Source: Candidatus Eiseniibacteriota bacterium (GTDB lineage Bacteria > Eisenbacteria > RBG-16-71-46). Taken from it: 64,000 nucleotides of DNA. The DNA is taken from contig JADJLL010000007.1 in NCBI GenBank assembly GCA_016710095.1, positions 41,122 through 105,121 of the forward strand, read 5' to 3'. Below the pieces are notes generated by a model, which made no database searches, had not been told where the DNA came from, and saw only the letters and a list, made by a program, of their open reading frames with translations. Of this stretch, positions 25,125 to 40,051 are shown one piece after another; the first letter of the stretch is position 1; the number at the start of each line of letters is the position of its first letter. The position numbers and the translations under genes were made by a program.

Positions 25125-25841
25125 ATGATCCCGAATGCTTCACGTCACGCCTCACGTGTTCGCCGCACAGGTCACGCTGGACTCCTCATTCTCGTGACCG
25201 CCGTCATGACGATGGCAAGCGCCGCAGGCCGCGCCGAAGGTACGCGCGCGATTCCCCTCAAACTGCCTGCTGGCATCGTTTACGACAAGGTTTCCGGTCC
25301 CGACAGCGCCGTCGTCTTCCGTCACACGACTCATGTGGACTACGAAAACGGCCGCTGCACCGGTTGTCACCCCAAGCTCTATCACCTCCTGAATCCCACG
25401 CGCCGCATCGAGCACGCCGAAATGAACCGCGGCGGATCGTGCGGCGCTTGTCATGACGGAACACACGCCTTTGACGTTCGCTCCAAAGCGTCATGCGGTG
25501 CCTGTCACGTTGGCAGAAAGAGCGAGTCGATCCTGAACGCGGAAAGCGAGGCGATGCGCAGCTCGGCGTCGTTCCGCGGACCCGATCCCTACACATACCC
25601 CGCCGGGCGCACGTCGCCGGGGCCCGTCACGTTCAAGCACACCACGCACACGGGCGCCTCGATGAAGTGCAACACCTGCCACTCGCGGCTCTTCGAGATG
25701 AAGGCCCGCCCTCCGTTCGAGGACGAGTGGATGCACGGCAAGGCGAAGTGCGGCGCATGCCACGACGGCAAGGCGAGCTTCGGAGTCGACGACCAGAAGC
25801 TCTGCGGCAAGTGCCATGCGGAAGGAAGGGCGAAGCCATGA
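25125..25841 (+). CDS. periplasmic hexaheme c-type cytochrome
   Basis: Sec signal peptide. Six CXXCH motifs (CTGCH, CGACH x3, CNTCH, CGKCH) in 238 aa. AAAGGGGGA RBS. Confidence 0.8.
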   Translation: MIPNASRHASRVRRTGHAGLLILVTAVMTMASAAGRAEGTRAIPLKLPAGIVYDKVSGPDSAVVFRHTTHVDYENGRCTGCHPKLYHLLNPTRRIEHAEMNRGGSCGACHDGTHAFDVRSKASCGACHVGRKSESILNAESEAMRSSASFRGPDPYTYPAGRTSPGPVTFKHTTHTGASMKCNTCHSRLFEMKARPPFEDEWMHGKAKCGACHDGKASFGVDDQKLCGKCHAEGRAKP

Positions 25842-26581
25842 GCCACGCGCTGTTGCTCGACACCACGCTGTGCACCGGATGCGGCGCGTGCACGGCGGCC
25901 TGCAAGGAACAGAACGCGCTGCCCGTGGACATCGAGGATCGGAACACCGCCTACACGTGGTGCACGGTCGAGAAGCGCGGGAACACGTTCGTCCGCCGGA
26001 TGTGCATGCACTGCGAGTCGCCGACGTGCGCGTCGGTGTGCCCGGTCGGCGCCATGACGAAGAGTCCCGAAGGCCCGGTGCTGTACGACCCCAAGAAGTG
26101 CATCGGCTGCCGCTACTGCATCCAGGCGTGTCCGTTCGACGTGCCGAAGTACCAGTGGGACCGGAACGTTCCCGTCGTGGCCAAGTGCATCATGTGCCAG
26201 CCACGTCTCGCGAAGGGCGAGCCGACGGCGTGCGCCGCCGTGTGCCCGACCGGCGCGACGAAGTTCGGCCATCGTGACGACCTCGTCCGCGAGGCCAAGG
26301 AACGCATCGCCGCGACGCCGGGCCGGTACGTGGACCACATCTATGGACTGCACGAGGCCGGTGGAACGTCGGTGCTCATGTTGTCCGCGGTGCCGTTCGG
26401 CCAGCTCGGCCTGCGCACGAACCTGCCCGACGAACCGCTCGGCCAGCTCACGTGGCGCGTGCTGAGCCGTGTGCCCGACATCGTCCTGATGGGCGGCACG
26501 CTGCTCTACGGCGTCTACTGGATCACGAAGCGCCGGGATCACGTGCGGCGCATCGAGGGCGGGGAGGGGCACGAGTCATGA
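25838..26581 (+). CDS. NrfC/HybA/PsrB-like 4x[4Fe-4S] ferredoxin subunit with C-terminal membrane anchor
   Basis: Four ferredoxin-type Cys clusters (CTGCGACTAAC, CMHCESPTCASVCP, CIGCRYCIQACP, CIMCQ…CAAVCP). C-terminal TM (IVLMGGTLLYGVYWI). ATGA overlap with the cytochrome stop. No obvious Tat signal. Confidence 0.8.
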   Translation: MSHALLLDTTLCTGCGACTAACKEQNALPVDIEDRNTAYTWCTVEKRGNTFVRRMCMHCESPTCASVCPVGAMTKSPEGPVLYDPKKCIGCRYCIQACPFDVPKYQWDRNVPVVAKCIMCQPRLAKGEPTACAAVCPTGATKFGHRDDLVREAKERIAATPGRYVDHIYGLHEAGGTSVLMLSAVPFGQLGLRTNLPDEPLGQLTWRVLSRVPDIVLMGGTLLYGVYWITKRRDHVRRIEGGEGHES

Positions 26582-27735
26582 CGACGATGGAACTGCCGCG
26601 TCCGCGCGGCGTGCGGTTCGGCGCCTGGACGGCGATCTTCGGATTGCTCGTGATCGCGTTCCTCTACGCGACCGTCATGCGCTTCTACAAAGGTCTCGGC
26701 GCCACGACGAACCTCTCGGACGCGTTCCCGTGGGGCATCTGGATCGGGTTCGACATCCTCTGCGGTGTCGGTCTCGCGGCCGGCGCGTTCACGCTCATGG
26801 CCACCGTGCACCTGTTCCACATCGAGAAGTTCAAGCCGATCGTGCGCCCGACGCTGCTGACGGGCTACCTCGGCTACCTGCTCGTATGCGTGGGACTGAT
26901 GTACGACCTCGGGCAGCCGTGGCGCATCTGGCACGCGATCATCTACTGGAACGAACACAGCGTGATGTTCGAGGTCGCGTGGTGCGTGATGCTCTACACC
27001 ACGGTGCTGACGCTCGAGTTCTCGCACATCGTGTTCGAGCGGCTGAACTGGAAGTGGGCGCTGAACATCATGCATGCGCTCAACACGCCGCTCGTGATCC
27101 TGGGCTGCCTGCTCTCCACGCTGCACCAGTCGTCCCTCGGCACGATGTACCTGATCGTCCCCGAGAAGCTGCACGCCCTCTGGTACACGCCGGCGCTGCC
27201 GCTGCTCTTCTACATCTCGGCGATCGGGGCGGGACTCGGGATGGTCATCCTCGAGTCGCATCTGTCCGGGCGGGCCCTGGGGCACGAACTCGAAATGGAC
27301 CTGCTCGAGCCGCTCGGCCGCGTGATGATCGTGGTGCTCGCGATCTTCGGCGTCCTGCGCCTCGACCTCATGTGGCACTCGGGCGCGCTGAAGATGGTGT
27401 TCCAGCCCATGTACGAGAGCCGGATGTTCCTCGCCGAGTTCGGCATCGGCGTGCTGGCCCCGATCTTCCTGCTGGCGTGGCCGCGCGTGCGGCGTTCGCC
27501 GGTGGGGCTCGTGATCGGCGCGACGTGCGCGGTCCTCGGCTTCATGCTGTACCGGTTGAACGTGAGCATCACGGGCATCGAACGCGCGAGCGGCACGCAC
27601 TACGTGCCGTCGTGGATGGAGATGGCCGTTTCGGTCGGCCTCATGGCGATCGGCGTGGCGCTGTTCGGGCTCGCCGTGCGCTACCTGCCGATCTTCCCGG
27701 CGAGCAAGCACGGCTCGCACGCTCACCGGGCGTGA
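26578..27735 (+). CDS. NrfD/PsrC/HybB-like polytopic membrane quinone-interacting subunit
   Basis: ~8-9 predicted TM helices with NrfD-family topology. ATGA overlap with the upstream FeS gene. Confidence 0.85.
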   Translation: MTTMELPRPRGVRFGAWTAIFGLLVIAFLYATVMRFYKGLGATTNLSDAFPWGIWIGFDILCGVGLAAGAFTLMATVHLFHIEKFKPIVRPTLLTGYLGYLLVCVGLMYDLGQPWRIWHAIIYWNEHSVMFEVAWCVMLYTTVLTLEFSHIVFERLNWKWALNIMHALNTPLVILGCLLSTLHQSSLGTMYLIVPEKLHALWYTPALPLLFYISAIGAGLGMVILESHLSGRALGHELEMDLLEPLGRVMIVVLAIFGVLRLDLMWHSGALKMVFQPMYESRMFLAEFGIGVLAPIFLLAWPRVRRSPVGLVIGATCAVLGFMLYRLNVSITGIERASGTHYVPSWMEMAVSVGLMAIGVALFGLAVRYLPIFPASKHGSHAHRA

Positions 27736-27744
27736 GGTGAAGTG

Positions 27745-29655
27745 ATGAAACTGCGGATCGGCGTCCTGACCGTACTGGGAGTCGCGGCCGTCACGGCCGG
27801 GAGCATCGGCATGATGTCCGGCCTGGTGCTCAAGGCGCATCGTGACGCGCAGATCGCCCAGCTCACTCAGGGCGCCGATCAGCTGAGCGAGACGATCGTG
27901 AGCAGCACGTTCTGGGACATGCTCGAGAACCACCGTCCCGCGCTGCACCGCGAGATGATCACGATCGGGAAGCAGAAGGGCATCGAGAAGGTCCGGCTGT
28001 TCAACCGGACCGGCAAGATCATGTTCTCCTCGAGCGAGGGCGAGATCGGGCACTCGCTCGACAAGAAGTACGAGGCCTGCATCGCGTGTCACGCCGCCGA
28101 CCAGCCGATCACGCGGCCGCCGACGAAGGCGCGCGCGCGCATCTACCGCGCGGCGGACGGGCACCGGGTGCTGGGCATGATCCGCCCGATCCACAACGAG
28201 ACGCGCTGCTGGAACTCGGGCTGCCACGCGCACTCGCGCGAGGAGAACGTGCTCGGCGTGCTCGACGTGAACCTGTCGCTCGCCGAGACCGACGCGCGCA
28301 TCGCAGCCGACCAGCGCCGCATGATCCTGCTCGCCGTGCTCATCATGGCGACGATCAGCACGGTCCTGTTGTGGTTCGGCGAGCGGCTCGTGCTGCGGCC
28401 CGTGCGCGAACTGATCGCCGGTACGCGCCGCGTCGCCGCGGGCGACCTGCACACGATGCTGCCCGCCGCCTCGAGCACCGAACTGGGCGACCTCGCGCGC
28501 GCGTTCAACGAGATGACGAGCAAGCTCTCCGACGCGCAGCGCCAGCTCACGCAGGCGGACAAGCTCGCCTCGGTCGGCCGGCTCGCCGCCGGCGTGGCGC
28601 ACGAGATCAACAACCCGCTCACCGGCGTGCTGACGTACGCCTCGTTCCTGCAGAAGCGTCTCGCCGACCGTCCCGAGGTGAAGGAAGACCTCGAGGTGAT
28701 CGTGCGCGAGACGAAGCGCTGTCGCGACATCGTGCGCGGGCTGCTCGACTTCTCGCGCCAGTCGCCGCCGCAGCACAAGCCGACCGACCTCAACGAGATC
28801 GTGCGCCGCGCCGTGGCCGTCGTGATGAACCAGCTCATGCTGCGCCGCGTCGCGCTCGACTTCCATCTCGCCGACGGGCTCGAAGCCGTGCCGGCGGACG
28901 GCAACCAGATCCAGCAGGTCGTCGTGAATCTCGTGATGAACGCCGCCGACGCGATCGGCGAGGGCGGCGGCACGATCGCCGTGCGCACCGCGGCCGTCGA
29001 ACTGCCCGCGCGTGGGAACTCGATCATCCGCCTGGCGCGCTGCCCGCACGGATGCGACGTCCTCGATCCCACGGTGCGCATCGGCGCGCACCCGGCGATC
29101 AAGGTGATCCGCCGCACGGGCGACCGCGACGACGTCGTGCACATGGATCCCGTGTACGGCCGCGCGAACCACCACGCGAGCGGCCCGCTCGAACGCGACA
29201 AGCTCGCGACGTACGCCTGCCCGCGCTGCCGCGCGAAGCTCGACGGCCCCGCGCGCTGCGGCGACTGCGGCGCGCCGACCTTCGCGGTCGTCTCGCCCGA
29301 GCTCGGCCGCATCGAGTGGTGCACGCGCAAGGGCTGCCACTGGACGCGCTGCGAGACGCTCGACGCGTCGGGCCCGCTACGCATGGTCGAGCTGGAAGTG
29401 CGCGACAGCGGCAAGGGCATCGCGCCGGAGGATCTCGATCACCTGTTCGAGCCGTTCTTCACGACCAAGGGCAACCGCGGTCTGGGGCTGGGGCTCGCGG
29501 TGACCTACGGCATCGTCGAGCGCCACGGCGGCACGATCGTGGTGTCGAGCGAGTTGGGGAACGGCGCGACGTTCCTCGTGCGCCTGCCGCTCCTGCGCGC
29601 GGGGCAGAACGCCGCGATCGTCACGGAGTCCGTCCGGACGGGAGGTGTCTCGTGA
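27745..29655 (+). CDS. sensor histidine kinase with periplasmic c-type-heme sensor domain and a Cys-rich (Zn-ribbon-like) insertion inside the HATPase domain
   Basis: TM1…~160-aa periplasmic domain with CIACH (CXXCH) and CWNSGCH (CX4CH)…TM2, then HAMP and HisKA (H box AHEINNPL). HATPase N-box NLVMNAADA, then a ~140-aa insert containing CPHGC, CPRC, CGDC and CTRKGCHWTRC, then the G1/G2 boxes (DSGKGI…GLGLGLAV). Confidence 0.85.
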   Translation: MKLRIGVLTVLGVAAVTAGSIGMMSGLVLKAHRDAQIAQLTQGADQLSETIVSSTFWDMLENHRPALHREMITIGKQKGIEKVRLFNRTGKIMFSSSEGEIGHSLDKKYEACIACHAADQPITRPPTKARARIYRAADGHRVLGMIRPIHNETRCWNSGCHAHSREENVLGVLDVNLSLAETDARIAADQRRMILLAVLIMATISTVLLWFGERLVLRPVRELIAGTRRVAAGDLHTMLPAASSTELGDLARAFNEMTSKLSDAQRQLTQADKLASVGRLAAGVAHEINNPLTGVLTYASFLQKRLADRPEVKEDLEVIVRETKRCRDIVRGLLDFSRQSPPQHKPTDLNEIVRRAVAVVMNQLMLRRVALDFHLADGLEAVPADGNQIQQVVVNLVMNAADAIGEGGGTIAVRTAAVELPARGNSIIRLARCPHGCDVLDPTVRIGAHPAIKVIRRTGDRDDVVHMDPVYGRANHHASGPLERDKLATYACPRCRAKLDGPARCGDCGAPTFAVVSPELGRIEWCTRKGCHWTRCETLDASGPLRMVELEVRDSGKGIAPEDLDHLFEPFFTTKGNRGLGLGLAVTYGIVERHGGTIVVSSELGNGATFLVRLPLLRAGQNAAIVTESVRTGGVS

Positions 29656-30050
29656 GCCGAGCCTGGGACGTGCTGGTGGTGGACGACGAAGCCGTCGTGC
29701 GCGGCGGCGTGAAGCTCGTGCTCGAGCCCGAAGGACTGGCCGTCGCGCAGGCCGCGACCGTCGCCGAGGCGCTCGCGAGCGACGCCCTGAACGAATGCCG
29801 CTTGCTGCTCTGCGACCTGATGCTGCAGGGCGAGAGCGGACTCGAGGTCGTGAGCGAGGCGCGCCGCCGCCGGCCCGCGCTGCCCATCGTGCTCATGACC
29901 GGCTATGCCACCGACGACAACGCCGCCCTCGGCGCGCAGTCCGGTGCGACCGATTTCCTCGCGAAGCCTTTCGATGATGTCGAGCTGTTGGACCAGGTAC
30001 GGCGTGTCCTCGGGGATGCCCATGCCGACGAGAAGGAGGGATCGTCATGA
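29652..30050 (+). CDS. single-domain CheY-like response regulator
   Basis: GTGA overlap with the kinase stop. VLVVDDE…D-L-M-L receiver with conserved Asp (LLLCDLMLQG) and Lys (FLAKPF). Confidence 0.75.
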   Translation: MSRAWDVLVVDDEAVVRGGVKLVLEPEGLAVAQAATVAEALASDALNECRLLLCDLMLQGESGLEVVSEARRRRPALPIVLMTGYATDDNAALGAQSGATDFLAKPFDDVELLDQVRRVLGDAHADEKEGSS

Positions 30051-30102
30051 CCGCGCTTCTGGTGGTCGTGCTGTGTGTGTTGTTCCTGGGATCGAACTCG
30101 GC

Positions 30103-31194
30103 GTGCGCGCCGTGAACAAGAACCTCGAAGCCGCCCGCGTGCGGCGCGAGCGTGAAGCCGTGCTCAAGGCGCCCGTGAAGCTGGACATCGCGACCGAGAC
30201 GCCCAGCCTGCAGCGCGCCGAAGTGCCGAACGCGAAGGCCCGCATCCTCGCCGTGGACGACGAGGCGATCGTGCTCGACTCGTTCCGCAAGATCCTCGTG
30301 CTCGCCGGCTTCAGCGTGGACACCGTGAACACCGGTCCCGAGGCGCTCGCGCTCGTGCGCCAGCGCGACTACGACTTCCTGTTCACCGATCTCAAGATGC
30401 CGGTCATGGAAGGCACCGAGGTCGTGAAGGCCGTGAAGCACCTGCGTCCGGACGTGGACGTCGCCGTGATCACCGGCTTCGCCACGATCGAGACCGCCGT
30501 CGAAACGATGATGCACGGCGCGGTGGACTACGTGCAGAAGCCGTTCACGGAAGAAGAGCTCGTCGCGTTCGCGAACCGCATGTACGTGCGCCGTCAGGCG
30601 CGCATCGAGTCGCAGTCGAAGCCGGCCGTGCGCGTGGTCGCGCCCGAGCTGGTGGACATCATGGCGTCGCGTGAGTACGTCGTGCCCGGCGGCATGTTCG
30701 TGGCGACCGGCCACACGTGGGCGCGCATCGAGGACACCGGCGAAGTGTGCGTCGGCATCGACGACTTCGCGCGCAAGGCGATCGGCAAGGTCGAGCGCGT
30801 CGAGCTGCCCGCGCCCGGCACGAGCGTGAAGCGCGGCGAGGTGCTGTTCGTGGTGCGCCGCAAGGATGAGCACGTGCGCTTCCGTTCGCCCGTGAGCGGC
30901 ACGGTGACGGCGGTGAACGGCGACGTGAAGAAGGACGCCCGCGCGATGCTGGAGAGCCCGTACGAGCACGGTTGGACGTGCATGCTGCACCCGACCGACC
31001 TGACGCTCGACCTGGCAAACCTGCGCATCGGCAAGACCGTCGTGAGCTGGTACCAGGACGAGGTGACCGCGCTGCGCAAGGCGAACTCGGAAGCGACCGA
31101 CGGCGTGGTCCGCTGGTCGGCGCTCGAGGAGCGCTTCATGGGCGCCGGCGACGCCCCGCGCGAAACCACGACGGAGATCGTCGAAGTCGGGTAG
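30103..31194 (+). CDS. response regulator: receiver domain fused to a glycine-cleavage-system H-protein-like (lipoyl-carrier-fold) domain
   Basis: REC (ARILAVDDE…FLFTDLKMP…VQKPF) followed by a clear GcvH-like region (HTWARIEDTGEVCVGIDDFARKAIGKVERVELPAPGTSVKRGEVLFVV…SPVSGTVTAVNGDV). The lipoyl-Lys of the ESVKA motif is not conserved in register (VVRRKDEH). Start chosen at in-frame GTG 30103; 30112 is also possible. Confidence 0.75.
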   Translation: MRAVNKNLEAARVRREREAVLKAPVKLDIATETPSLQRAEVPNAKARILAVDDEAIVLDSFRKILVLAGFSVDTVNTGPEALALVRQRDYDFLFTDLKMPVMEGTEVVKAVKHLRPDVDVAVITGFATIETAVETMMHGAVDYVQKPFTEEELVAFANRMYVRRQARIESQSKPAVRVVAPELVDIMASREYVVPGGMFVATGHTWARIEDTGEVCVGIDDFARKAIGKVERVELPAPGTSVKRGEVLFVVRRKDEHVRFRSPVSGTVTAVNGDVKKDARAMLESPYEHGWTCMLHPTDLTLDLANLRIGKTVVSWYQDEVTALRKANSEATDGVVRWSALEERFMGAGDAPRETTTEIVEVG

Positions 31195-31228
31195 AGGACG
31201 GGTGGTGGGGAGCTGCACGCAACAAGAC

Positions 31229-31258
31229 GGGCGGCGCGTTCGAAAGAGCGCGCCGCCC
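31229..31258. terminator. bidirectional rho-independent terminator between convergent genes
   Basis: Perfect 10-bp stem GGGCGGCGCG-TTCGAAAGAG-CGCGCCGCCC. Confidence 0.55.
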
Positions 31259-31282
31259 GATGCGTTGTCGTCGAAGTGAGGT

Positions 31283-32229
31283 CTAGCGGTAGCCGGTCTT
31301 CAGTCGTCCCCACGTCGTGGTGCGCGCGGGAACGGGCCGGCCGGGGCCGGGGCCGTAGGCGCCGATCTGTCCGCCGGAGTTGCTGTACTCGTAGAAGATC
31401 GAGGCGGGGGAAAGACGGAAGTCGTTGCCGAAGGCGTCCTGGAAGAACGGGTCGAAGCCGGCGATGTGCGCTCCCATGGTCGAGCAGGTCAGTCCATTCC
31501 CTCCGCTCGACCAGATATCGCAGTAGTCCCAACTCGGGTAGCTCAGGCATCCATACCAGACCCCCACGCTTGCGATGGCGCCGTTTTGCGCAAGTCCCCG
31601 CTGCCGAAACACTCATCGCATTCGTGGCATTCCGAACCATCAGGCGCGCGATCGCATGCGGTCCGCCGCTTGCGGAGAGTCCTTGGTCCGCGTCCGCGAG
31701 TTCGCAGTCCAGAATATTGCCGCCGTGTTGCGAGTCGATACAGATCTGCGACGCGGAGATGCTGGACTCGAGGACGCTGCCGCTTCCCACCAGAACGAGC
31801 CCCTTGCGCGGTCCATGAACTGAGAGCTTCCGCAGGGAGGCGGCCCCGCTGCCTTCCATTCGAATTTGTCCCCATTCGCCGAAGCCAGAAGTCCAGAACC
31901 GAATGCTGTCGGCGACCGATCCGTCGGCGACGAGCGAGCCGAACACACTGAGCTCGGAGAGGTTCGGGAACTCCCCACCATGCAGCGTGTCGTGATCGGC
32001 TTGAAGTAGACCAGCACGCCCGGCTCGATCGTGAGCGTGGCGCCGGGGTTGACCACCACGTCGCCTTGCACGAAGTACATGGGACCGGGGTAGGCGTAGG
32101 TCAGCGTGCGATTGCCGTTGATGAAGCCGTAGAGCTTGTTGCTGTTCGGGTCGACGGCGGCGTTCGCCACGCTCGAACAGAGCACGAACAGGAGCAGTGC
32201 AGCACCGAGTCGGGGTAGCCAGTTCCGCA
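31283..32229 (-). CDS. secreted right-handed beta-helix (pectate-lyase-fold-like) protein ending in TTTWGRLKTGYR, disrupted by at least two frameshifts (~32000 and ~31615)
   Basis: N-terminal signal peptide (MRNWLPRLGAALLLFVLCSSVANA) in one frame. Beta-helix repeats (…GSVLESSISASQICIDSQHGGNILDC…) in a second frame. C-terminal ~110 aa in a third frame ending …ARTTTWGRLKTGYR. Confidence 0.45.
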
Positions 32230-32336
32230 TGGGAATACTCCAAAGGCGAGAGGTGGCGGGGGAAATCACGCGCAGACTATCGATCGCCGTGGCCGTCCGC
32301 ACCGGGCCAGAAGTAGGCCGCGCAGCGCTGAGAAGT

Positions 32337-32425
32337 TGGTGCCGGAGGCGGGGGTCGAACCCGCACACGATTTTGGTCGTACCGGATTTTGAGTCCGGCG
32401 CGTCTGCCAGTTCCGCCACTCCGGC
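32337..32425 (-). tRNA. tRNA-Leu (anticodon CAA)
   Basis: 89-nt cloverleaf GCCGGAGTGGCGGAACTGGCAGACGCGCCGGACTCAAAATCCGG…long variable arm…GGGTTCGACCCCCGCCTCCGGCACCA. Anticodon loop CT-CAA-AA. CCA encoded. Confidence 0.9.
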
Positions 32426-34915: not shown

Positions 34916-36256
34916 CTAGTGGTAGAGCGCGAACCCGGCGCCGAGTTCGGTGGCGCGTTCGTGCGTGAGGTTGCGGGAGTGGGTGGCGACCGCGGCGTCG
35001 AGGCCGAAGCGGCCGAGGCGCAGGCCGATGCCACCGGAAGTCTGGGTCTGGTTCTGCAGGTCGCGCGCGACGCCCGCCCGCAGCGCGAGGTGGCCCAGCC
35101 AGCGCTCGACACCCGCGCAGCTCGTCGTGCGTCCGAGCGCATCGCGCGTGGCGGCCCCGGCGAAGAGGAAGCCGGCGAGGCGCGTCGTCACGGTGATCTG
35201 TCCGGTCGCGGGGATCGTGCTCGTGAAGGGCACACCGTCGGCGACCGTGGTCTCGACGAGATCGCCCGTGAGCGTGTCCCGCGCGACGATCCGCTCGCGC
35301 ACCTTCCACCGCAGTTGCGTCGCGAGGTCGTTGGCGGCGAGACCGATCTCGGTGCGGCCGGCGACGATCACGAGTCCGGCGTCCAGTCCGTGCCCGAAGC
35401 CGCCCTGCTGCGGCGTGGCCGTGCGCAGGCGCGCGCGGTAGTCCACGTCCACGGCGTCGTCGCCGAACAGCGTGTCGGCGGTCGTGAAGCCGGCGGCGCT
35501 CTGCGCGTCGGCGTAGGCCAGGCCACGAATGAGCCGCGCGCGCACGCCGGCGTAGAGACCGGTGCGCGACTGGCGCGGATCGGGAGAGGAGCGCCACAGC
35601 GGCTGCGACCAACCGAGCAGGCCCTGCGCGGCGACCTGGCCGATCGCGTCGTCCGTCACTTCGTAGCGCGTCGTCGGCTGGAACGGCTCGGCGTCGATGA
35701 GCGCGCTCTGCAGCGGCGAGTTGAGCGCGAGCGAGTTCTCCGCGTGCACGAGCGGGCTCACGCCGACGAACATCCGGCGGTAGCCGATCGCGAGCACGGG
35801 CAGGCGGGCGACGACGGCGTACTCGTCCGCGTCGCGCGGCAGGACCTTGCCGACGTCGCCGAGATTGACGGCGAGCGAGTTGCGGCCGATCGAAACGCCG
35901 ATGTCGCCGGACGGCGCGGTCGGCGCGTCGAGCGACCAGTTCCACGGCACGTTCATGAGCAGGTTCGCCAGCTCGAACGCGTTGAAGTCGGGATCCTCGG
36001 GATCGAGCACCGGCGGATCCTGGAGCACGGGAATGACGCCGATCGGCAGCGAGATCGCGCGGCAGCCGTGCGCGGGGCGGGGCACGGAGTGGTACGCGAC
36101 GTTGACGCCGTCGGCGCCGGGGCCGCAGCCGGGAACGGGCGCGCCGCCCATGCCCAGCCGGCGTGCGCTCATGACCTGGGCGTGCGCGGGCGCGAACGAG
36201 GCCGCACACGTCGAGAGCAGTGCTGCGAGGAAGATCGCCTTCGGAAGCCGCTTCAT
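34916..36256 (-). CDS. putative outer-membrane beta-barrel protein (hypothetical)
   Basis: Signal peptide MKRLPKAIFLAALLSTCAASFAPAHA. Alternating amphipathic beta-strand composition. Terminal …GAGFALYH. Confidence 0.55.
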   Translation of the reverse strand: MKRLPKAIFLAALLSTCAASFAPAHAQVMSARRLGMGGAPVPGCGPGADGVNVAYHSVPRPAHGCRAISLPIGVIPVLQDPPVLDPEDPDFNAFELANLLMNVPWNWSLDAPTAPSGDIGVSIGRNSLAVNLGDVGKVLPRDADEYAVVARLPVLAIGYRRMFVGVSPLVHAENSLALNSPLQSALIDAEPFQPTTRYEVTDDAIGQVAAQGLLGWSQPLWRSSPDPRQSRTGLYAGVRARLIRGLAYADAQSAAGFTTADTLFGDDAVDVDYRARLRTATPQQGGFGHGLDAGLVIVAGRTEIGLAANDLATQLRWKVRERIVARDTLTGDLVETTVADGVPFTSTIPATGQITVTTRLAGFLFAGAATRDALGRTTSCAGVERWLGHLALRAGVARDLQNQTQTSGGIGLRLGRFGLDAAVATHSRNLTHERATELGAGFALYH

Positions 36257-36539
36257 GTGCCACCCCTCGGTGAGCGGAGTGCGCCGCGGCGATGATCCCG
36301 TGGCGATCCGCTCCGCCCGTGACGGGGGAGCGCCTCCGCGCGCCGTTCGTCTCGCAAGGTCGGAGCCAGCGGGGCGCGTTTCGGCCGTTCGTCCGCGCTT
36401 CGCGGGCGCCGTACCCCGCGTGCGGCGCGAAGGCGGGCGCGGGCATGCCAACCGGGGGCGCAGGGCGCTTTCGCAACCCTCGAACTCGCTCGCATTTCGT
36501 GTAGCATGCCCGCGGTTCGAACCGACCCTTGGAGGCGTC

Positions 36540-38129
36540 ATGGATTCGCGAATCATCGAGGCGGCGCGCACCGCCTTCCGCTCGAATGGCTCCACGCTCA
36601 CCCTCGGCGCGCTCGTGCATGCCGGAGAATGCAATGCCGAGCCGCTCGCCGCATTGCCGCTCGCCATGGCGAACCGCCACGGGCTGATCGCCGGCGCGAC
36701 CGGAACGGGCAAGACCAAGACGCTCCAGCTGCTCGCCGAGCAGTTCTCCGCGGCGGGCGTCCCGGTCTTCCTCGCCGACCTGAAGGGCGACCTCTCGGGG
36801 CTCTCCATGCCCGGCGAGGCGAGCGAGCGCGTGAACCAGCGCGCGAAGGACACGGGCTACTCGTGGAAGGCGGGCGGCTGCCCGGTCGAGTACCTGAGCC
36901 TCACCGGCAAAGGCGGCGCCCAGCTGCGCGCGACGGTGTCGTCGTTCGGTCCGCTGCTGCTCTCGCGCGTGCTCGGGCTCAACGACACGCAGACGAGCGT
37001 GCTCTCGATGGTGTTCAAGTACGCCGACGACCAGAAGCTCGCGCTGCTCGACCTGGCGGACCTGCGCGCGGTGCTTCAGTACCTGAGCGGTGACGGCGCC
37101 GAGGAACTCGCGAACTACGGCGGCATGAGCAAGGCGAGCGTCGGCGTGCTGCTGCGCGAGATGGTCGAGCTGGAACAGCAGGGCGCGGGCGCGTTCTTCG
37201 GCAATCCCGAGTTCGACCTCGACGACCTGCTCGCGGTGAAGGACGGCAAGGGGCTCGTGAGCGTGCTCCAGCTGCGCGACGTGCAGGACAAGCCCGGGCT
37301 CTTCTCGACGTTCATGATGTGGATGCTCGCGCGGCTCTACCACGAACTGCCCGAAGTCGGCGATGTGGACAAGCCCAAGCTCGTCTTCTTCTTCGACGAA
37401 GCGCACCTGCTGTTCGACGACGCGAGCAAGGAGTTCCTCGACCAGGTCGAGCAGGTCGTGCGGCTCATTCGCTCGAAGGGCGTCGGCGTGTGGTTCGTCA
37501 CGCAGAGCCCGAAGGACGTGCCGGCCGACATCCTCGGCCAGCTCGGCAACCGCGTGCAGCACGCGCTGCGCGCGTTCACGCCGGACGACGAGAAGGCGCT
37601 GCGCGCCGCCGCGCGTACGTTCCCGAAGACCGACTTCTACGACGTCGAGGAGATCCTCACCACGCTCGGCATCGGCGAGGCGTTCGTCACGGTGCTCGCG
37701 CCCAACGGCGCGCCGACCCCGCCGTTCGCCGTGCGCATGATTCCGCCGGCGTCTCGCATGGGTCCGCTCAGCGAAGGTGAGCTGGTGAGCGCGCTCGCTG
37801 CATCCGAGCAGGTGCGCGAGTACGCGGTGGCCGAGGATCGCGACAGCGCTCGCGAAGCGCTCGCGCGGCGCATGGCCGGTGACTCGGCGGCCGCGGCCCC
37901 GGTGGCACCTGCCGCTCCCGTGCAGCCGTCCGGAGTGCCGCCCGTGGCCGAACAGCAGCCCGATCCGGGCGCGCGCGCGGCCGAAACGGTGGCGGGCGCG
38001 GCAGCCATGGTCGGCGCGGCGCTCAACTCGCCCGTCGGCCGTCAGGTGGCGCGCACACTCGTAAGCACAGTGACGCGCGGTCTGCTCGGAGCGCTTCTGG
38101 GTTCACCGCCACGGCGCCGACGCCGATAG
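36540..38129 (+). CDS. DUF853-family P-loop NTPase (YjgR/HerA-FtsK-clade helicase-like ATPase) with Pro/Ala-rich C-terminal tail
   Basis: Walker A GATGTGKT, Walker B VFFFDEAH, overall YjgR-like organisation. GGAGG RBS. ~110-aa low-complexity tail (…AAAPVAPAAPVQPSGVPPVAEQQPDP…) ending just before the poly-G block. Confidence 0.8.
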   Translation: MDSRIIEAARTAFRSNGSTLTLGALVHAGECNAEPLAALPLAMANRHGLIAGATGTGKTKTLQLLAEQFSAAGVPVFLADLKGDLSGLSMPGEASERVNQRAKDTGYSWKAGGCPVEYLSLTGKGGAQLRATVSSFGPLLLSRVLGLNDTQTSVLSMVFKYADDQKLALLDLADLRAVLQYLSGDGAEELANYGGMSKASVGVLLREMVELEQQGAGAFFGNPEFDLDDLLAVKDGKGLVSVLQLRDVQDKPGLFSTFMMWMLARLYHELPEVGDVDKPKLVFFFDEAHLLFDDASKEFLDQVEQVVRLIRSKGVGVWFVTQSPKDVPADILGQLGNRVQHALRAFTPDDEKALRAAARTFPKTDFYDVEEILTTLGIGEAFVTVLAPNGAPTPPFAVRMIPPASRMGPLSEGELVSALAASEQVREYAVAEDRDSAREALARRMAGDSAAAAPVAPAAPVQPSGVPPVAEQQPDPGARAAETVAGAAAMVGAALNSPVGRQVARTLVSTVTRGLLGALLGSPPRRRRR

Positions 38130-38139
38130 AAGAGAGCAC

Positions 38140-39950
38140 GAGCGGTGTGGGGCGGTCGGGGCGCCCGCGCCCGGGGCGCACCCGGGGCGGGGGCACGCGC
38201 CGCCCCCGCCGACGACGGCCGCCCGCGGCGACGCGGACCAAAGCCACGCGCGGCGCCCCCCGGGGGCCGGCCCGCCGGCAACCCGCGCGCGGCCGCCCGG
38301 GGGGGGGGAGGGGGGGGGTTCGGCGCCCGACGTCCCGGGGGGGGCCCGCCCGACTTCCGGCCGGGGGGAACCCGCGCCGTTCGGGTCGCGGGGCCAGACA
38401 CGGCCGCGACCGCGCACCGGGGGGGGGGGCCGGGGCGGGCAGGGGGGCCGGGCCGTTCCCCGGGCCTCAAGCAAGGGGATGTTGTTGTTCAGCGAGCGGG
38501 GTTGGGGACACCCGCCCGCACCCGCCTCGCGCCCGCGGGGGGCAGGTTTCCGGGGCTTCCGGAGGGCGGGGGGCTGGGCGCGGGGGGTTGCCCCGCCCCG
38601 CGCCAGCCCGCGGGGGAGACGGGGGGCCTTCGGCGCCGCCCGGGCCGCCGGCGCCGGGGCGCACGCGCACGGGGGGGGCCGGGCGGGGGGGGGGTTGGCG
38701 AAGTCTGGGGGGGGCCCGGGCCCCGGGGGTTCACCGTCGGGGGGGGGGGTTCGCACAGACGTTGGGGCTAGCCCCGGGGGGGCGGGCACTGCCACCCACA
38801 CCGCCGCGAAGAAAAAGCGTTCGCCCGCACGCCCACCGGATTCGAAACGGGAGGGGAGGGGACGTTGCTCGGGGGGGCGCCCGGGGAAGCCTTCAGGCCT
38901 TCGGGGGGGCGCCCTACGACCCCCGCGTTGCCCGGGCGCACCGAGTCGCCGGGGCGCCACGACGCCGGATCGGGGGGGCGCCCGGGCCCGGCCCCGGGGG
39001 GGGCTCGGCGGGGGGCCGCCCGGCAGGGGGCGGGGCGACCTGAGCGCGTACTACCCCCGTTCGCGCTGGGTGGGAAACGCGGCGACCGCGCCCCGGGGGG
39101 GGGGGGGGGGCCAGGGGGGCCCCCCGGGGGGGGGGGAAGGGGTGGTCGGCGGGGCGCCCCGCAGCCTGGGCTGGGGGGGAGGGGGGGACGGGGAGCGATT
39201 TCGGGGAGGAGCCCGACGCGGGGAGGGATTTCGCCCGCACGCCGCAACTGTCGCCACCGGCGGAGGGGGCTGGGGCGGGGGCCCCCGCCCGGGGAGCAGA
39301 AGCGCAACCACCCCACGCCCGCACCCGAACACGACGCCCCCCCGGGCGGGCCGCCCCCCAGGGCCCTTCCAGGCTGACGACGGCCCGCTTCAAAAGCGCC
39401 GCGGACGGGGACAACACGAGCCCGCCGGGGGCGTACTACCCCGCCGACAAGACGGTCGATCGGGAGCGGGGGGGGGGCGTCCCGGACCCCGGGCCGGGGC
39501 GGGGGACCAACCCCCCGAGGAAAAAGACTGACCAGCCGAAGACGGCCTTCGAACGTCACCGCGAAGTCGATGGCGGGGCGAAGACGGCACGGGGGGGGGG
39601 ATTTGGGGGCCTGACGCCAGCGCGGGGGGGGGATGATCACGCGCCGGGGGGTTGTTGGTTGAACAGCTGGGGGGGGGGCGGGGGGGGGGGGGACCAGGGG
39701 CGGGGGGGGGAGAAGCTCCGGGGGAAGCCCGGGTACTGGGGGCAACGGGGAGGGGGAGGACGCTGGGGGGGGGGGCAGGGGAGGGGGAACGGGAAGGGAA
39801 ACTGGGGACGCCTCGGGGCCCGAGGGGGAGGGGGGGGCCGGGGACGCGCCCGACCCGGGGGGGGAGGGGGGGGCGCCGGGCCGGAAATCCGCTTCCGCCG
39901 AGTCTCTTCGGCCGGCGCGAGTTGACGATGCCGCCGTTGCTGGTGTAGAA
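38140..39950. repeat. 1.8-kb G-homopolymer-rich low-complexity block (G runs of 7-15 nt, strong G-over-C skew on + strand), most likely assembly/base-calling artefact
   Basis: Dozens of runs like gggggggggg interspersed with short normal-looking fragments. All six frames give only G/P/R-rich translations. No counterpart elsewhere except nt 1-150. Confidence 0.6.
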
Positions 39951-39975: not shown

Positions 39976-40051
39976 GGGGCTGTAGCTCAGCTGGGAGAGC
40001 GCTTGACTGGCAGTCAAGAGGTCGACGGTTCGATCCCGTTCAGCTCCACCA
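39976..40051 (+). tRNA. tRNA-Ala (anticodon GGC)
   Basis: GGGGCTGTAGCTCAGCTGGGAGAGCGCTTGACTGGCAGTCAAGAGGTCGACGGTTCGATCCCGTTCAGCTCCACCA. G3:U70 alanine identity pair. Anticodon loop CT-GGC-AG. Confidence 0.9.

Follow-up and report, generated by a model that had tools for sequence, protein, structure and literature searches.

A membrane-tethered response regulator with a GcvH-fold output domain lacking the lipoyl-lysine, encoded beside a haem-motif kinase and an FeS/NrfD redox module in Candidatus Eiseniibacteriota

What does a response regulator do with an output domain that has the fold of the glycine-cleavage H-protein (GcvH) and has lost the lysine that would carry the lipoyl group? The question is raised by a gene in a stretch of 64,000 nucleotides from a Candidatus Eiseniibacteriota bacterium (contig JADJLL010000007.1; the whole stretch is hereafter called the window, and all coordinates are its own), in which the frame 30103-31194 (+) translates without a stop into 363 amino acids. 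The original prediction, made from the sequence alone, described a receiver fused to a probably non-lipoylated GcvH-like module, an unusual output that could serve in protein interaction. We find that this protein belongs to a family that is large, widespread and unstudied, that it is tethered to the membrane by an N-terminal transmembrane (TM) helix, and that synteny with a haem-motif kinase and an iron-sulphur (FeS)/NrfD module is near-obligate in this family.

The fusion itself is clear. The receiver (REC) domain at 30244-30567 (+; residues 48-155) matches Pfam Response_reg (PF00072) with an E-value of 2.4e-26 and 92.5 bits, and the residues that define membership of the response-regulator family, namely the acidic pocket (DD), the phospho-acceptor Asp (the D of FTDLKMP), the Thr of VITG and the Lys of QKP, are all present in the window protein; D71, D72, D115, T143 and K165 are invariant in 110 homologues. 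Judged from these residues, the receiver looks functional, with its phospho-acceptor site intact. Further along, the core of the GcvH fold at 30709-31005 (+; residues 203-301) matches Pfam GCV_H (PF01597) with an E-value of 1e-16 and 61.4 bits, where the gathering cut-off is 22.2 bits, and a phmmer comparison with the sequences of the Protein Data Bank (PDB) gave significant E-values to H-proteins only (best 1onl, E 6e-14, with 108 residues aligned). The NCBIfam models for GcvH proper match below their equivalog or subfamily cut-offs (TIGR00527 with 53.5 against 115.85 bits, NF002270 with 65.5 against 117 bits). The danger foreseen by the original prediction, that the domain might belong to a different beta-barrel family, did not materialise, as neither the biotinyl/lipoyl attachment domains nor the NqrA_N/RnfC_N barrel-sandwich hybrids outscore GcvH in the profile and fold comparison. 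The sequence, profile and fold evidence for a GcvH-fold domain likewise supports its view that the output is neither DNA-binding nor enzymatic.

The loss of the lysine, also part of the original prediction, holds for the family as much as for the window. When aligned to GcvH of E. coli and of T. thermophilus, the tip of the hairpin reads RRKDE (30856-30870, +) in place of the ESVKA lipoylation motif, and both a HMMER alignment to 1onl and a MAFFT alignment with E. coli GcvH place an Asp in the lipoyl-lysine column (D81 in C-terminal numbering, nucleotides 30865-30867), the sole nearby Lys being at position -1. Among 102 relatives the lipoyl column holds Glu in 26, Asp in 20, Ala in 14, Gly in 11, Asn in 8, Ser in 6, Lys in 6 and Gln in 5, while position -1 is Gly in 79 and Lys in 3; in a set of 149 sequences (the window query and 148 cluster representatives at 50% identity), Lys occupies the lipoyl column in 7 and position -1 in 9. 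There is no in-register lipoyl-lysine in the window or as a rule of the family, which on this residue pattern cannot, as a whole, be lipoylated at the canonical site, and the domain of the window protein is probably non-lipoylated. The hairpin nonetheless has a family-wide consensus, [RK]-[QR]-G-x-[RK], that is, a basic glycine turn; because the tip lacks a lipoylatable Lys and yet is constrained, it would be expected to act as a binding surface and not as a cofactor site.

The core is followed by a family-specific C-terminal extension of about 65 amino acids (30994-31191, +), comprising an LRIG motif, a WYQxE helix and a W...F tail, in which an AlphaFold2 (AF2) model has two helices (C-terminal residues 137-156 and 164-171). 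W142 and E146 of this tail, which are without counterpart in canonical GcvH, are kept in 125 of the 149 diverse representatives. Nearly all members of the REC-fused subfamily also have a Cys behind the GW motif; as a family-defining catalytic or carrier site it was rejected, since only 61 of the 149 members of the broad family have it.

The gene is longer than the frame that drew attention to it, and 30103 is not its start. The homologues P0001-P0120 almost all have 380-383 amino acids and an N-terminus that reads MTALLVVVLCVLFLGIELAV (also given as MTALLVVVLCVLFLGIELAVRAV or MTALLVV...), and the homologous N-terminus is encoded in the window from the ATG at 30047, which lies behind an AAGGAGG Shine-Dalgarno sequence, overlaps the stop of the upstream gene (ATGA) and is the true start. 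The reading frame slips 15 codons after this ATG. DNA alignment with three close relatives (L007, L008 and L016) reveals a 1-nt deletion at about 30089-30093, the window having CTGGGATC where the relatives have CTGGGAATC, and GTG 30103 is the first GTG past the slip. If the deletion is repaired, the full gene runs from 30047 to 31194 (+) and encodes 382 amino acids. What remains of the frame is about 99% identical to the intact P0001, and the GcvH-like part with its tail is under purifying selection (dN/dS 0.09-0.30 against the same three relatives, 0.09 against the nearest), so that the deletion should be either very recent or an error of assembly. A homopolymer error is favoured because the window holds a 1.8-kb stretch with many poly-G runs, and we think that the deletion is probably an assembly or homopolymer error, although it could be a real lesion. 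The stretch in question (38150-39900) is apparently non-coding, with about 80% GC, a strong G skew and dozens of runs of 8-17 G; it stops just before a tRNA-Ala(ggc) gene at 39976-40051, and could be either an artefact of sequencing or a region genuinely rich in G-quadruplexes.

What the frameshift breaks is a conserved N-terminal TM helix (30047-30109, +), detected by hydropathy and by conservation and modelled as a helix. A Kyte-Doolittle window exceeds 1.8 at residue 1 in most family members, the AF2 model has a helix across residues 2-41, and the helix is conserved position by position, F13, D17, V20 and R/Q21 being kept in 42-98% of 132 REC-fused and 176 short forms. The predicted topology has the N-terminus outside and the C-terminus in the cytoplasm, because the N-terminal region is without positive charge and basic residues follow the helix. 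The helix and its frameshift, the C-terminal tail, the operon context and the size of the family were all absent from the original prediction.

As for the size of the family, a search of 5.8 billion proteins gave more than 120 clusters (at 90% identity) of proteins with REC and GCV_H domains, 59-99% identical to the window protein. The fusion is thus no one-off. Scanning 1.84 billion cluster representatives by HMMER with the C-terminal 189 amino acids returned 1305 representatives at E <1e-10, and most of the top matches are proteins of 220-240 amino acids in which the same TM helix at residue 1 leads directly into the GcvH-like (GcvHL) domain and its tail. In other architectures GcvHL stands behind a periplasmic PBP-like domain and a TM helix (about 560 amino acids, in Bacteroidales), behind an N-terminal Cys-rich motif, or in tandem. 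That it is found in some proteins behind a periplasmic ligand-binding domain and in others behind a Cys-rich motif would suit a generic role as transmitter or adaptor, with inputs that can be exchanged. One protein of 1391 amino acids (P0127) combines three GcvH-like domains with FAD-oxidase, 4Fe-4S and two CCG (HdrD/LdhH-like) domains and is, by its domain content, another recruitment of GcvH-like domains into redox enzymes. Soluble GcvH-like paralogues (L003 6981-7997; P0165, P0161, P0180 and P0258) have one or two N-terminal Cys motifs, for example KCxWMxAGxVxYKLCDxxxxCxxCxxD or the shorter CPxxxxCxxCxxD, which may be an input module that binds metal or Fe-S. Public annotation gives the REC-fused members the label 'CheY-like / glycine cleavage system H lipoate-binding protein'; because annotation pipelines label both domains, the architecture is visible in databases and yet uncharacterised.

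The neighbourhood of the gene is as conserved as the gene. A genome scan gave 80 loci, in Candidatus Eisenbacteria, Holophagaceae and other Acidobacteriota, Binatia, Ignavibacteria, Melioribacteraceae and Betaproteobacteria, together with one contig each from Deltaproteobacteria and Bacillota; the window is 95% identical to two Eisenbacteria metagenome-assembled genomes. The proteins of the window operon were compared by tblastn with these 80 loci and with five looked up earlier, and a locus was regarded as well flanked if it had at least 5 kb upstream and at least 3 kb downstream (n=52). Genes for the FeS protein, the NrfD-like subunit and the kinase adjoin the GcvH-like gene on the same strand in 48 of these 52 loci, across Eisenbacteria, Acidobacteriota, Ignavibacteriota, Betaproteobacteria and Binatia; the remaining four are partial, and the kinase was detected in 50. 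Individual loci of KSB1 and Bacteroidales, looked up separately, have the same FeS/NrfD/kinase neighbourhood. The search for similar fusions in other genomes that the original prediction had proposed has thus uncovered a large conserved family with a shared neighbourhood.

Around this common core the clusters vary. Blastocatellia-type Acidobacteriota, with TM-only forms, have Cys-GcvHL, TM-GcvHL, FeS, a fusion of NrfD with cytochrome c7, a histidine kinase and an NtrC-type regulator; the KSB1 and Ignavibacteria clusters have three GcvHL paralogues (a triple REC-GcvHL); and the Bacteroidales cluster has PBP-TM-GcvHL, FeS, NrfD, a second GcvHL gene (called in one of two loci), a histidine kinase and an NtrC-type regulator. 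In the Holophagaceae clusters TM-REC-GcvHL is the only receiver adjoining the kinase. Two further neighbours may be mentioned, a Peptidase_M54 (archaemetzincin-like) gene, consistently placed after the NtrC-type regulator in the clusters of Acidobacteriota and Bacteroidales (L003, L004, L086 and L087), and a C_GCAxxG_C_C protein encoded divergently upstream in the Acidobacteriota clusters.

Bringing together the receiver, the tether, the lost lipoyl site, the conserved hairpin and tail, the purifying selection and the synteny, we think, with a probability of about 0.5, that the protein is a membrane-tethered response regulator whose output involves neither DNA binding nor enzymatic activity nor the chemistry of a lipoyl or aminomethyl carrier, and that its GcvH fold acts as a phosphorylation-switched docking module whose partner is presumably encoded in the same cluster. 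In this scenario the kinase would read the periplasmic redox state or that of the quinone pool through its putative haems, which would probably exchange electrons with the co-encoded cytochrome c/FeS/NrfD module, and would phosphorylate the receiver of the tethered protein. Phosphorylation would then alter the docking of the GcvH-fold domain, through a surface formed by the conserved basic [RK]-[QR]-G hairpin together with the tail that contains the W and E, on a membrane partner, which could be the kinase itself, by analogy with lipoyl domains on the GHKL-type pyruvate dehydrogenase kinases (PDK), or the FeS-NrfD complex, by analogy with the barrel-sandwich domains of NqrA and RnfC; the result would be a post-translational output. 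The protein-interaction output of the original prediction fits the near-obligate synteny and the membrane tether, and it is from these that we infer the docking itself.

Several points weigh against this scenario. The kinase and the FeS-NrfD complex are both candidate partners, and contact with either is deduced from sequence and synteny. The precedent of PDK and its L2 lipoyl domain depends on a lipoyl group that is absent here. The topology of the redox module is uncertain because the FeS protein is without a signal peptide in the lineage of the window, the gene may be inactive in the source organism because it is frameshifted, and the role of the module may be structural and not signalling because short forms without a receiver coexist with a separate NtrC-type regulator. 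More tentatively, we consider the possibility that lipoyl-less membrane-anchored GcvH-fold proteins form an unrecognised signalling family dedicated to a widespread redox-sensing membrane module, and that the REC form would gate the kinase or the electron flow through NrfD post-translationally, without acting on transcription. If this were true, a dihaem kinase would be wired to its own cytochrome c/FeS/NrfD conduit to the quinone pool.

A purely structural role is one alternative. The GcvH-like proteins would then be structural or assembly subunits of the cytochrome c/FeS/NrfD complex, held in place by their TM helix and with the receiver tuning activity or stability, and the main output of the kinase would lie elsewhere, in the stand-alone receiver encoded next to it in the window or in the NtrC-type regulators of other phyla. 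The sharing of clusters between REC-less short forms and separate NtrC-type regulators is in line with this, as are a TM helix unusually conserved in sequence for a simple anchor and the analogous barrel-sandwich N-domains that NqrA and RnfC carry in membrane redox complexes. However, neither a subunit of this kind nor any conserved flanking genes are reported for the published cytochrome c/FeS/HybB-like modules (bioRxiv 10.1101/2023.11.02.564894), the linkage of the GcvH-like gene to the kinase is as tight as that to FeS-NrfD, and in Holophagaceae the kinase adjoins no receiver other than the one fused to GcvHL. We regard a purely structural role as rather unlikely, while noting that it overlaps one branch of the docking scenario and is hard to tell apart from it computationally.

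The two other objections concern the state of the gene and the chemistry of the domain. A frame that is broken where three close relatives and P0001 have it intact is what one would see if the gene were a pseudogene in the source organism, a decaying relic whose deletion removes the membrane anchor or blocks translation; the frame is otherwise intact and nearly identical to P0001, dN/dS to the nearest relative is low, the deletion falls in a short GGGAA homopolymer context, the poly-G stretch suggests homopolymer-prone sequencing or assembly, and the in-frame GTG 30103 could still give a soluble REC-GcvHL, so that pseudogenisation in the source strain, although possible, is disfavoured and in our opinion unlikely. 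It could also be argued that the domain is still a carrier, a 'swinging arm' with a group on the shifted Lys, a Cys persulfide or some other modification, to which the receiver gates access, and that it shuttles reducing equivalents or sulphur to FeS/NrfD or to an Hdr-like partner. Lipoate-binding GcvH-like proteins do serve Hdr-like complexes in sulphur oxidisers, GcvH-like domains of this very family are fused to FAD-oxidase, 4Fe-4S and CCG (HdrD/LdhH-like) domains in P0127, a Cys is nearly invariant in the REC-fused subfamily, and the window copy has a Lys at -1. Yet Lys is rare at either position in both sets of relatives, with Gly dominant at -1, the Cys is missing from most of the diverse members, and the genes that were called or matched in the examined clusters include no lipoate ligase, lipoate synthase or other gene for modification; a carrier function thus appears quite improbable to us. 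Of these readings, the docking scenario is the one that we prefer.

The operon in which the gene stands consists of six tightly packed genes of the same strand, of which it is the last, with overlaps (ATGA, GTGA) or gaps of at most 7 nt. It begins with a periplasmic multihaem cytochrome c of the c7/c3-like type with six CxxCH motifs (25125-25841, +), whose orthologues carry Pfam Cytochrome_C7, followed by a HybA/HmcB-like 4Fe-4S protein with a C-terminal TM tail (25838-26581, +; Pfam Fer4_11, E 5.6e-22). In Eisenbacteria and Acidobacteriota this FeS protein is without a Tat or Sec signal and begins at the ferredoxin fold (25838-25900 in the window), whereas a twin-arginine signal of the RRxFLK type (for example MDRRDFLK or VDRRFFLK) is present in the orthologues from KSB1, Ignavibacteria, Betaproteobacteria and Bacteroidales, as seen when N-termini were compared across loci, including L005, L074, L075, L081 and L086; in Eisenbacteria and Acidobacteriota the protein may perhaps be exported by hitch-hiking. 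The third gene (26575-27735, +; Pfam NrfD, E 5.7e-24) encodes an NrfD/HybB/HmcC-like integral membrane quinone-interacting subunit, which scores 301 bits with the NCBIfam model for HmcC and 294 bits with that for HybB, both under the equivalog cut-offs.

The sensor histidine kinase (27742-29655, +) has, by Pfam, TM, periplasmic domain, TM, HAMP, HisKA and HATPase_c. Its TM helices at about residues 1 and 190 enclose a periplasmic domain whose only Pfam match is a weak one to Mcp40H-20_sensor and which contains CxxCH (28078-28092) and Cx4CH (28207-28227); both motifs occur in 67 of 68 full-length kinase orthologues, across phyla, and because they are conserved we consider this to be a putative (di)haem c sensor domain. 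Within HATPase_c lies a Cys-rich insert of about 105 amino acids (29041-29352) with CPHGC, CPRC, CGDC and C-x4-C-x4-C motifs, looking like zinc ribbons as far as the motifs go; 40 of the 68 orthologues are of a long form (at least 600 amino acids, with a median of 10 Cys past residue 250), and the other 28 have about 510 amino acids (median 2 Cys). Between the kinase and the gene studied here is a stand-alone receiver (29652-30050, +; Pfam Response_reg, E 2.5e-23; 132 amino acids in the gene calls of relatives), whose start overlaps the stop of the kinase and whose stop overlaps the start of the last gene. A separate REC gene is called at this place in two Eisenbacteria-type loci, and in many other loci the kinase and the fused REC have a separate REC match between them, which the Holophagaceae clusters lack.

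A promoter and terminator scan of the operon detected nothing, and neither the operon nor its annotated flanks showed a gcvT or gcvP gene. About 1.1 kb downstream is a tRNA-Leu(caa) gene (32337-32425, -), and, judged by GC3, no convincing gene lies in the interval 31200-32300. Further on, a HerA-like ATPase frame (35784-38129, +; Pfam HerA_C, E 2e-185) overlaps a long frame on the other strand (34916-36856, -) that also has high GC3, and it is likely that just one of the two is real.

Response regulators with outputs that do not bind DNA are the least understood part of two-component signalling, and this family adds to them a new output fold, an H-protein without its cofactor site, and a rare membrane tether. 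The association with the redox module spans phyla of soil, groundwater and sediment (Eisenbacteria, Acidobacteriota including relatives of Holophaga and Geothrix, Ignavibacteriota, KSB1, Bacteroidales and Betaproteobacteria) and points to a common, unstudied way to sense or control respiratory electron flow. There is also a practical consequence, in that annotation routinely gives the short forms the name 'glycine cleavage system protein H', so that the apparent capacity for glycine cleavage is inflated in metabolic reconstructions based on metagenomes.

How does this system compare with those already known? In full-text searches of the literature, neither a fusion of a receiver with GcvH nor a link between GcvH-like proteins and NrfD modules turned up. 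With GcvH (PF01597, TIGR00527) the window protein shares the fold, above the gathering threshold, and at 53-65 bits it stays well short of the equivalog cut-offs of 116-117. The hairpin of the window protein lacks the lipoyl-Lys, the family having [RK]-[QR]-G where GcvH has E-S-V-K; GcvH is a soluble protein of about 130 amino acids with GcvP, GcvT and the L-protein as partners, whereas here we have a TM-REC fusion of 382 amino acids with a tail of about 65, among neighbours that are cytochrome c, FeS, NrfD, histidine kinase and receiver. Neither of the divergent GcvH families in NCBIfam accommodates the single-domain members, which reach 25-42 bits with NF045810 ('GcvH-related protein', Desulfovibrio type) against a cut-off of 150, and 26-52 bits with TIGR03077 ('not_gcvH', 'glycine cleavage protein H-like') against a cut-off of 144; for the window protein, the two models are not among the best 25 of 107 NCBIfam matches. 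GcvH-L of Streptococcus pyogenes (PDB 5a35) and LbpA of the sHdr systems keep the lipoyl-Lys and are lipoylated. For none of these four (GcvH-L, NF045810, TIGR03077, LbpA) is a TM anchor, a fusion to REC or a link to a kinase/NrfD cluster described. The L2 lipoyl domain likewise uses its lipoyl-lysine arm on the pyruvate dehydrogenase kinases (PDB 1y8n, 3crk), an arm that is absent here, and the likeness is one of general fold only, so that we speak of a possible mechanistic analogy and not of homology of systems.

The redox genes, for their part, are of a familiar kind. The trio of cytochrome c, tail-anchored FeS protein and HybB-like subunit is a known periplasm-facing quinone module, for which no conserved neighbours have been described (bioRxiv 10.1101/2023.11.02.564894), and Hmc/HybAB-type modules share with the window the multihaem cytochrome c, the tail-anchored FeS protein and the HybB/HmcC-like subunit. 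The hmc operon of D. vulgaris even resembles ours in having a receiver gene, rrf1, at its end. That Rrf1 (DVU_0530) might itself be a REC-GcvH fusion is unsupported: a 2026 preprint aligns it with single-domain CheY-like receivers, without mention of GcvH or 'glycine cleavage', so that it is apparently a plain receiver that lacks a GcvH-like domain. The Hmc system moreover has HmcDEF and no kinase, whereas here the putative (di)haem kinase and one or more GcvH-like proteins are integral to the cluster.

Finally, the closest functional parallels on the signalling side are CheY, CpdR and RssB, with which the window protein shares a canonical receiver and the expectation that phosphorylation controls binding to protein rather than to DNA. 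These three are soluble response regulators with protein-interaction outputs, having either no output domain or a PP2C-like one; the protein described here has in its place a GcvH-fold output and, at its N-terminus, a membrane helix.

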